8,242 nucleotides of DNA from IMG/VR virus record IMGVR_UViG_2698536379_000012. One strand, written 5' to 3'. The notes under the pieces are model-generated. The model saw only the letters and a list, made by a program, of their open reading frames with translations. It had not been told where the DNA came from and did not search any database. The stretch is from a virus. Lineage: Duplodnaviria; Heunggongvirae; Uroviricota; Caudoviricetes. Below are positions 7,486 through 8,242 of the stretch, in pieces. The first letter of the stretch is position 1, and every line of letters starts with the position of its first letter. The translations under genes and the position numbers were made by a program.

Positions 7486-7685
7486 GTTTTGCTGATGCGC
7501 CGTATCGTCGCCGTATTCCTGCATTAACAGAGACCGCAGCCCGACAGGGAGACTCCTCTGCGAGAGTGTGCGGGGATAATCAAAAACGATACACACCGGG
7601 GTTTACCGCGTAAACGGAGCGCGGCGTTCTCCCCTCATGGTCGCCCGTCCGGTGCGATGGTGGAAGAAACTGGAATCTGTTCAAT

Positions 7686-7715
7686 AAAAAAACTGCCGTG
7701 TTGGAGTCACAGCAG
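7686..7715 (-). terminator. Rho-independent terminator candidate on the minus strand, downstream of the minus-strand ORF
   Basis: Minus strand reads CTGCTGTG-ACTCCAA-CACGGCAG (8-bp stem with one G-U wobble, 7-nt loop) followed by TTTTTTT (plus-strand A-run 7686-7692). Confidence 0.5.
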
Positions 7716-7847
7716 TAATGTACTGATTGGGTAGAAGATTATTATTGTTATGCTTTATTTTTATTCTATATGGCTGATTATTTCAATTCGGAATTAATAC
7801 AGCTAATGTCTGTGAGTTTTTATAAATTCAGCAATATAAAGAAATAG

Positions 7848-8075
7848 TTATATGAACAGCCATCGCAGAGCATACTGTGTATCATTCTTTTTTATAGTCA
7901 ACTGACGGGCATATTTTATGTCTGCTGCCAGCTCCCGGCGGCAAGATTCAATGACCCACGCAGAAAAATTTTCTGAACCTTTCTGGTCAAGAGCGATGTT
8001 AATTTGTTCAATCATCTGGTTTGGAAATCGGATGTTGCGGGTTGTTGTTCTGCGGGTTCTGTTCTTCGTTGACAT
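7848..8075 (-). CDS. Putative small ribbon-helix-helix-like DNA-binding protein (75 aa), unknown function, in an AT-rich segment
   Basis: MSTKNRTRRTTTRNIRFPNQMIEQINIALDQKGSENFSAWVIESCRRELAADIKYARQ... has a basic N-terminus, a candidate beta-strand (RNIRFP) and two helices in an RHH-like pattern. It is the only ORF here with its own downstream terminator. RBS is weak and the fold assignment is by pattern only. Confidence 0.4.
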   Translation of the reverse strand: MSTKNRTRRTTTRNIRFPNQMIEQINIALDQKGSENFSAWVIESCRRELAADIKYARQLTIKKNDTQYALRWLFI

Positions 8076-8222
8076 GAGGTTGCCCCGTATTCAGTGTCGC
8101 TGATTTGTATTGTCTGAAGTTGTTTTTACGTTAAGTTGATGCGGATCAATTAATACGATACCTGCGTCATAATTGATTATTTGACGTGGTTTGATGGCGT
8201 AGATGCACGTTGTGACATGTAG

Positions 8223-8239
8223 ATGATAATTATTATCAT
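8223..8239. promoter_or_regulatory. Perfect 8-1-8 palindrome ATGATAAT-T-ATTATCAT matching the Fur-box 7-1-7 core (TGATAATnATTATCA); candidate Fur operator
   Basis: The two arms at 8223-8230 and 8232-8239 are exact reverse complements. The surrounding 19-mer matches the GATAATGATAATCATTATC consensus at about 15/19. A second, weaker ATAAT..ATTAT element lies at about 8168-8181. The target gene is unknown and may lie beyond the window. Confidence 0.35.
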
Positions 8240-8242
8240 TTT

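Follow-up and report, generated by a model that had tools for sequence, protein, structure and literature searches.

Gene and family assignment

The window analysed here is the whole 8,242-nucleotide stretch of IMG/VR virus record IMGVR_UViG_2698536379_000012 (Caudoviricetes). It represents the late region of a lambdoid prophage and is 99.9% identical to a prophage of the E. coli O55:H7 strains CB9615 and RM12579. Near its right end, beyond the lysis gene Rz, a 75-codon gene of the YlcI/YnfO family (DUF3950) lies on the minus strand with a terminator of its own. The open reading frame (ORF) was found exactly as described in an initial annotation made from the letters of the sequence. The gene and its 3′ flank comprise the following features:

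7848-8075, minus strand: YlcI/YnfO-family (DUF3950) gene, ATG start, 75 amino acids (ORF list and family models)
7929-8075, minus strand: conserved core, codons 1-49 (ratio of nonsynonymous to synonymous polymorphism, pN/pS; ~97% identity to the right end of lambda)
7848-7928, minus strand: variable C-terminal tail, codons 50-75 (38% GC, unrelated to lambda, lower predicted local distance difference test score, pLDDT)
7717-7847, minus strand: 3′ untranslated region (3′-UTR), 131 nt, 25% GC (composition)
7686-7716, minus strand: intrinsic terminator (scan match, RNA folding, hairpin kept in a sister allele)

The protein was matched by the Pfam model DUF3950 (PF13132; E 3.1e-17, 62.6 bits against a cut-off of 25), by the NCBIfam model NF041551 (YlcI_YnfO_N; 39.3 bits against a cut-off of 30) and by phrog_949 (E 4e-33). 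The same gene of E. coli O55:H7 CB9615 is labelled 'YlcI/YnfO family protein' in RefSeq (WP_000105085.1), and the protein, which the initial annotation did not recognise, can therefore be named. The gene is an already catalogued, uncharacterised family member and no new kind of element. The family motif (K/R)xIRFP ... NFSAWV..AC is present as RNIRFP at residues 13-18 and as NFSAWVIESC at residues 36-45.

Of 5426 complete E. coli genomes, 4335 contain DNA related to the locus, and single genomes carry as many as 13 copies; an uncharacterised family is thus present in ~80% of the complete genomes. Strain K-12 carries the members ylcI in DLP12 and ynfO in Qin. Phage lambda carries a 64-codon homolog at 48109-48303 on the minus strand (L003 2710-2904), the product of which is identical to K-12 YlcI; the lambda reference record NC_001416 has no feature annotated at this position. 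The annotated lambda gene lambdap79 was considered as the homolog and rejected, as it is a different ORF at 47738-47944 on the plus strand. Identity of the K-12 and lambda proteins to the window protein is 65-70% overall and rises to ~90% within residues 1-49.

An exhaustive search of 1.8 billion representative proteins returned 103 proteins at E ≤ 1e-3, many of which are error-ridden reads of lambda DNA. About 15 are true divergent family members with 33-53% identity. In these, residues I15, R16, N36, F37 and V41 are invariant and F17, I25, S38, W40 and C45 nearly so. The literature searched reports no experimental function for the YlcI/YnfO family; the gene is not mentioned in the supplement of the O157 Sakai translatome study, and the literature search yielded no ribosome-profiling report for the lambda homolog.

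Constrained core and exchanged tail

Selection and allelic structure were analysed in a sample of 80 loci from viral contigs, which encode 22 distinct proteins. For the core, which comprises a basic N-terminal arm, a putative β-strand (N14-I-R-F17), helix A, a G-S-x-N turn and the start of helix B, a pN/pS of 0.10 was determined from 31 distinct alleles (pN = 0.045, pS = 0.45). The 59 variable core sites in these alleles are distributed over codon positions 1, 2 and 3 as 12, 10 and 37. Both a chance ORF and a purely DNA-level role are excluded by this ratio and this codon-position pattern. The frame is unbroken in all 79 viral loci in which it was examined, and the 75-codon ORF is a real, strongly constrained protein-coding gene.

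The tails fall into at least eight unrelated classes among the 22 proteins. From about codon 50 through the ATG and the entire upstream region to cosQ, the prophage aligns with lambda at ~97% identity. The lambda homology ends near codon 50, and the tail, the 3′-UTR and the terminator are unrelated to those of lambda and of the K-12 members; the allele in the window is instead of the Shiga toxin (Stx) phage type. Stx phages, for instance BP-4795, match the block from tail to terminator at 99% identity, and that homology stops at the ATG. Since the lambda and Stx-phage homologies break near codon 50 and at the ATG, respectively, recombination joints bracket the gene, and the C-terminal tail and 3′ flank have been swapped by recombination. 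The combination of an Stx-type tail with a lambda-type upstream region was found in only 7 of the 5426 genomes.

Terminator and base composition

The terminator stem (7716-7692) consists of nine pairs, five of them G-C, with a 7-nt loop, and is followed by TTTTTTT to about position 7686. The RNA fold has an energy of -17 kcal/mol against -6.5 ± 2.3 in shuffled sequences (z = -4.66), and none of 200 shuffles matched it. Scan and folding thus bear out the good intrinsic terminator noted in the initial annotation and place it at 7716-7686. It is unidirectional, since a T-run is absent from the plus-strand side. The sister allele L027 retains the hairpin with one G·U to A-U change, and the unrelated tail class termed 'INEK' shows, 20 nt past the stop codon, another hairpin that carries a T-run. 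Qin-type alleles have, instead of such a terminator, a DUF1398 gene 41 nt after the family gene (ydfO in Qin). The description of the locus as a unit apart, of opposite orientation and closed by a terminator of its own, is upheld, and terminators recur in the relatives.

Between the stop codon and the terminator no co-directional ORF of at least 45 amino acids was found, the only ORF being an overlapping one of 21 codons. A small RNA in the 3′-UTR was considered and rejected: an Rfam scan of this AT-rich region gave no match, and known prophage anti-small RNAs (anti-sRNAs) map to the pR′ moron site.

The GC content is 50% for the whole window, 46% for the core codons (7929-8075), 38% for the tail codons, 25% for the 3′-UTR and 37% for the upstream region (8076-8242). 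A sharp drop in GC content after Rz had been described. The drop is real and begins at about 7690, but it is uneven, as the first 200 nt past Rz still have 56.5% GC. Nor is the segment AT-rich as a whole in origin: only the tail and the 3′ flank are AT-rich foreign DNA, and the core and upstream region are of lambda type. The ~200 nt from the Rz stop codon to the terminator (7486-7685; 56.5% GC) hold no convincing gene and are kept as one block with the Stx-phage-type allele.

A moron, in the definition of Juhala and Hendrix, is reportedly an independent accessory unit expressed in the lysogen, with its own promoter, its own terminator and a deviant base composition. The gene has its own terminator and a deviant composition, though the core itself is not deviant. 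With morons between Rz and cos, such as lambda bor, it shares the orientation opposite to the late operon, an own terminator, an AT-rich flank and the location. It differs from them in that its core is a conserved fixture of the junction and not sporadic, foreign composition being confined to the tail and the 3′ flank. The product here is a putative DNA-binding protein and not a surface protein.

Prediction of a ribbon-helix-helix fold

The ribbon-helix-helix (RHH)-like pattern noted initially is present in the sequence as an alternating N-I-R-F strand, a helix at residues 19-32, a G33-S-E-N36 turn and a second helix from residue 34. Structure prediction, which had been suggested as a check, agreed in part. 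The AlphaFold2 monomer model (mean pLDDT 73.5) contains the helix at 19-32, the turn at G33 and a long helix from 34, but no strand at residues 13-18. Such a missing strand is expected of a monomer, as the RHH sheet is an intersubunit structure that arises only in the dimer.

In a Foldseek comparison with the PDB, all 16 matches were RHH DNA-binding domains (NikR, Arc 1PAR, ArtA, TCP) with weak E-values of 1.9-10. Alignment by hhalign with Arc, NikR and CopG was obtained in the RHH register, with NIRFPNQMIEQINIALDQKG opposite Arc FNLRWPREVLDLVRKVAEENG. N14 and R16 are thereby placed on N11 and R13 of Arc, the base-contacting residues of the Arc-operator structure. For a profile-profile comparison, an alignment of the Arc family was built from real sequences; the comparison gave P 0.0047 and a probability of 7.5%, and 6 of 300 column permutations scored as high (empirical p ~0.02). 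A scan of PHROG families gave a weak match to a HicB-like family. No RHH family was matched when 17 members were scanned against Pfam with E-values up to 10, a search of the family profile against PDB sequences returned nothing relevant, and comparison with a viral structure library gave no informative match.

Like P22 Arc and Mnt (RHH, PF03869), the protein is a small phage protein with the motif order N-[IL]-R-[FW]-P, helix, G-x-S/N turn, helix. The sequence relationship is marginal, however; the protein is encoded outside the immunity region, its basic N-terminal arm is longer, and it possesses a conserved Cys45. Each single test is weak, and the evidence is coherent and not conclusive; an RHH fold is the best reading and is considered fairly likely.

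Position beside the packaging module

In every one of 79 viral loci the divergent neighbour of the gene is the first gene of the packaging module. In the cos-type loci (~47), cosN lies 211-219 nt upstream of the ATG and is followed by a Nu1-like small terminase subunit (TerS) gene. In the HNH-type loci (~29), an HNH endonuclease gene starts ~41 bp away and is followed by the genes of TerS and the large terminase subunit (TerL). In the O55:H7 genome of this prophage, a lambda-type cosQ/cosN (GGGCGGCGACCT) is located ~50 nt past the end of the window, followed by a gene for a Nu1-like small terminase. The layout next to cos and the packaging module is common to K-12 ylcI, ynfO and lambda, in which the homologs have the same position and orientation beside cos and the Nu1 homolog. 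The reading as unrecognised accessory cargo was wrong: the gene is not sporadic but a fixed feature of the lysis/packaging junction in lambdoid phages including lambda.

The gene is read in the direction that leads away from cos, opposite to the late operon, and its own terminator stops transcription before Rz. It is therefore antisense to the Q-dependent late transcript, which must cross it to reach the head genes. In K-12, ybcW-ylcI forms a convergent excludon in which ylcI is antisense to its neighbour and which is listed in at least 50% of RNA-seq samples (PMC12288877); on account of this listing, the K-12 homolog ylcI is transcribed.

At L001 9839-9945, ~80-190 nt past the end of the window, the lambda-type cosQ/cosN is joined to a non-lambda cosB with CATGTCCGGTTT / AAACCGGACATG repeats, and the small terminase there begins MATQTEVARHLSL. 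The joint at cos itself is another mosaic joint.

Upstream region: host-regulator sites and a candidate promoter

The following features were located between the ATG and the end of the window:

8109-8114, minus strand: predicted -10 hexamer GACAAT, predicted start about 8101-8102
8136-8149: perfect FNR consensus TTGATgcggATCAA, centred 67.5 nt upstream of the ATG
8224-8238: perfect 7-1-7 Fur box TGATAATtATTATCA, ~156 nt upstream of the ATG and ~50 nt from cosN

In cos-type loci the non-coding DNA from the ATG to cos is about three times more conserved than synonymous/third-codon sites of the core (pairwise divergence 0.082 vs 0.258). Relative to K-12 and lambda, 130 bp upstream are identical but for one base in the spacer of the FNR box. 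This box is perfect in 28 of 30 distinct cos-type sequences, and differences are confined to the spacer. The Fur box (one match against none expected by chance) is perfect in all 30, with only the central base varying. A plus-strand promoter-like site at 8212-8239 overlaps the Fur box; its -35 is not conserved.

The homologous K-12 sites ylcI/nohB and nohA/ynfO are bound by FNR, as determined by chromatin immunoprecipitation with microarrays (ChIP-chip) and electrophoretic mobility shift assay (EMSA) (PMC1802558). Myers et al. found the same sites bound in every chromatin immunoprecipitation sequencing (ChIP-seq) dataset with a score of 16.68 bits; for the copy in DLP12 they name ylcI as the gene closer to the site (PMC3688515 supplement). 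Among predicted Fur clusters, the K-12 homologs of the Fur box rank with the strongest (nohB 25.3 bits, nohA 22.3 bits); the nohA site was recovered by Fur titration and gave an in vitro gel shift with Fur (PMC2189734). Homology with these sites shows binding of the host regulators at the present locus, whereas regulation of the gene is inferred. The initial proposal of 8076-8242 as an EMSA target of the protein itself needs to be corrected, as the region carries FNR and Fur sites whose K-12 homologs bind those host regulators.

GACAAT is the only acceptable hexamer on the minus strand and is situated 28.5 nt from the centre of the FNR box, against 29.5 nt in a canonical class II arrangement. 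On the plus strand, even the best hexamer misses the register of the box by 4 nt. The arrangement of FNR box, 21 nt and GACAAT is retained in 27 of the 30 sequences, diverged ones included; the other three have GATAAT, which is nearer to the consensus. This geometry favours the DUF3950 gene over noh as the target of the FNR box. It predicts a minus-strand start near 8101-8102 and an RNA of ~415 nt to the terminator. The FNR and Fur sites have long been attributed to nohA and nohB and had no transcriptional phenotype; their placement and conservation would fit a promoter of the present gene instead.

Several results weigh against this assignment. No recognisable sigma-70 -35 element is present, and a consensus scan of 8076-8242 found no minus-strand promoter. 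Both K-12 loci were FNR peaks at which expression did not change in an FNR-dependent manner in anaerobic glucose minimal medium; for nohA, masking by Fur was suggested by Myers et al. (PMC3688515 supplement). A lacZ fusion directed towards noh was near-silent with only a marginal effect of fnr (PMC1802558). Furthermore, the viral loci of HNH-type phages have neither box, so that regulation by FNR and Fur cannot be general, and a consensus promoter scan of HNH-type phages was not above chance. The only sizeable inverted repeat (8145-8157 / 8165-8177) was rejected as an operator, as its arms vary without compensation in 30 sequences.

Contexts of divergent homologs

In satellite-like elements with integrase, AlpA and primase genes, a homolog is oriented divergently from the replication operon. 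By analogy, this classic repressor position may be taken as supporting context for a regulatory function. In three independent proteins of 129 amino acids (P0197, P0222 and P0223), DUF3950 is joined to the DNA-binding N-terminal portion of a Terminase_2 small subunit. P0197 is encoded at L006 4714-5103 in a satellite-like element (integrase, primase) with GTGCACAAACAC repeats upstream. These repeats are particular to that locus, and no operator motif common to the upstream regions of the divergent homologs was found.

Other divergent members (L008-L011) are chromosomal. Their contexts are DUF2946 - TonB-dependent receptor - DUF3950 - CopC, DUF2946 - cytochrome bd-type oxidase I/II - DUF3950 - DUF2474, and a DUF3950 gene immediately after a cdtABC toxin operon. 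The DUF3950 module is not phage-specific, since divergent members occupy chromosomal clusters.

Proposed function and alternatives

Taken together, the element is best explained as a YlcI/YnfO-family (DUF3950) gene of a lambdoid prophage that probably encodes an RHH regulator made in the lysogen. The product would be an Arc-like DNA-binding protein under strong purifying selection, encoded at a fixed site between the lysis and packaging modules and by a family of which the lambda member was omitted from the reference annotation. According to the structural models, there is good reason to expect that the 49-residue core forms an RHH dimer, in which the basic N-terminal arm and a two-stranded β-ribbon, with N14 and R16 in the positions of Arc N11 and R13, would contact DNA, and for which the tail would be dispensable. 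The gene may be expressed at the prophage stage and not as part of the late programme, from a class II-type promoter composed of the FNR box and GACAAT with a start near 8101. Expression would then be under host control by oxygen and possibly iron, like that of other lysogen-expressed genes between Rz and cos. Judged from the arrangement of these motifs, the case for such host-controlled prophage expression is evenly balanced. For the protein acting as a small transcriptional repressor, the chances are put at about even. A universal operator upstream of the gene itself is probably not its target: an autoregulatory site of this kind is unlikely because cos-type and HNH-type phages have entirely different upstream DNA while the putative contact residues are conserved.

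A packaging factor is the alternative that survives best, though it is regarded as unlikely. The protein would act at or near cos or on TerS, for example by silencing the packaging operon or cos cleavage or by tuning the recognition of DNA by terminase. In two unrelated terminase systems the gene invariably adjoins the packaging module directly, and in this prophage it lies ~260 nt from cosN; the three independent fusions to Terminase_2 in satellite-like elements point the same way, and YlcI/YnfO proteins are among the accessory genes of capsid-forming phage-inducible chromosomal islands (PICIs) (PMC13612085). However, a gene antisense to the late operon is expected to be poorly expressed during packaging. 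To our knowledge, lambda packaging has moreover been reconstituted without any such factor. Divergent homologs reside in non-phage clusters with a TonB receptor and CopC or with cytochrome bd oxidase, and a recombination hot spot could explain the adjacency. A relation to the known packaging redirectors of PICIs was rejected, as Rpp is a winged helix-turn-helix mimic of TerS with a coiled-coil dimerisation helix (PMC6739421), which differs in fold and has no sequence relation.

A combined reading, in which an Arc-like repressor is set by FNR and Fur and acts on the packaging module, silencing terminase or cos cleavage in the lysogen or tuning it to gut conditions, is quite unlikely. If true, it would explain the constant adjacency to packaging genes and the fusion to a TerS domain in satellites. 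The two 'orphan' FNR sites of K-12, with the highest value among the scores shown (16.68 bits), would be explained as well.

An orphan antitoxin-like or anti-defence module, in which the RHH core and the variable tail neutralise a toxin or defence protein encoded elsewhere, has a low probability. It draws on the weak PHROG match to HicB-like antitoxins, on the resemblance to the type II RHH antitoxin KacA (PDB 5ZGN) and on the hypervariable C-terminal tails, as would be expected of partner-specific tails. Additionally, a Yersinia homolog precedes a TumE-family gene and the Qin homolog precedes the DUF1398 gene ydfO. KacA, however, shares only 14% identity with a score below the usual level for homology. 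In the window no co-directional partner ORF of at least 45 amino acids precedes the terminator, so that the adjacent toxin gene of type II systems is absent, and a PADLOC scan for defence families gave no match. The tails resemble arbitrary read-through past recombination joints, being polar, unrelated and unequal in length, and purifying selection is concentrated on the DNA-binding-like core.

Finally, a role of the conserved 150 bp as DNA, namely as a homology patch for the exchange of lysis and packaging modules with an incidental or decaying ORF, would fit the mosaic joints that flank the core at the ATG and near codon 50, the free combination of every tail class with both upstream types and the rarity of the present combination, but it is largely refuted and very improbable, as the low pN/pS and the 37 of 59 variable sites at third positions indicate selection on protein, the frame is intact in all 79 loci and homologs of 35-50% identity in other genera and contexts retain the motif.

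Further features of the window

The genes of the window are, in order, those for a Q-like antiterminator, a SASA-family esterase, a holin, YdfR, a lysozyme, a Bro-N antirepressor-like protein and Rz/Rz1. The SASA-family (NanS-p-like) esterase gene at 2230-4163 is broken into two ORFs (2230-3447 and 3426-4163) because four bases (GGAC) are deleted at ~3411/3412 in comparison with O55:H7 CB9615, in which the gene is intact and 1938 nt long; it is a pseudogene unless a sequencing error is responsible. In the RusA-gene region (window positions 120-150), a 31-bp additional segment is present in comparison with CB9615. The window further differs from CB9615 by 24 substitutions clustered in the ydfR/lysozyme region (5368-5805), which look like a recombination patch. 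A strong match to the STnc100 small RNA family (99.6 bits, gathering score 47) was detected at 1923-2089 on the plus strand, downstream of the Q-like gene and at the pR′-proximal site, where anti-sRNAs of enterohaemorrhagic E. coli (EHEC) prophages were mapped.

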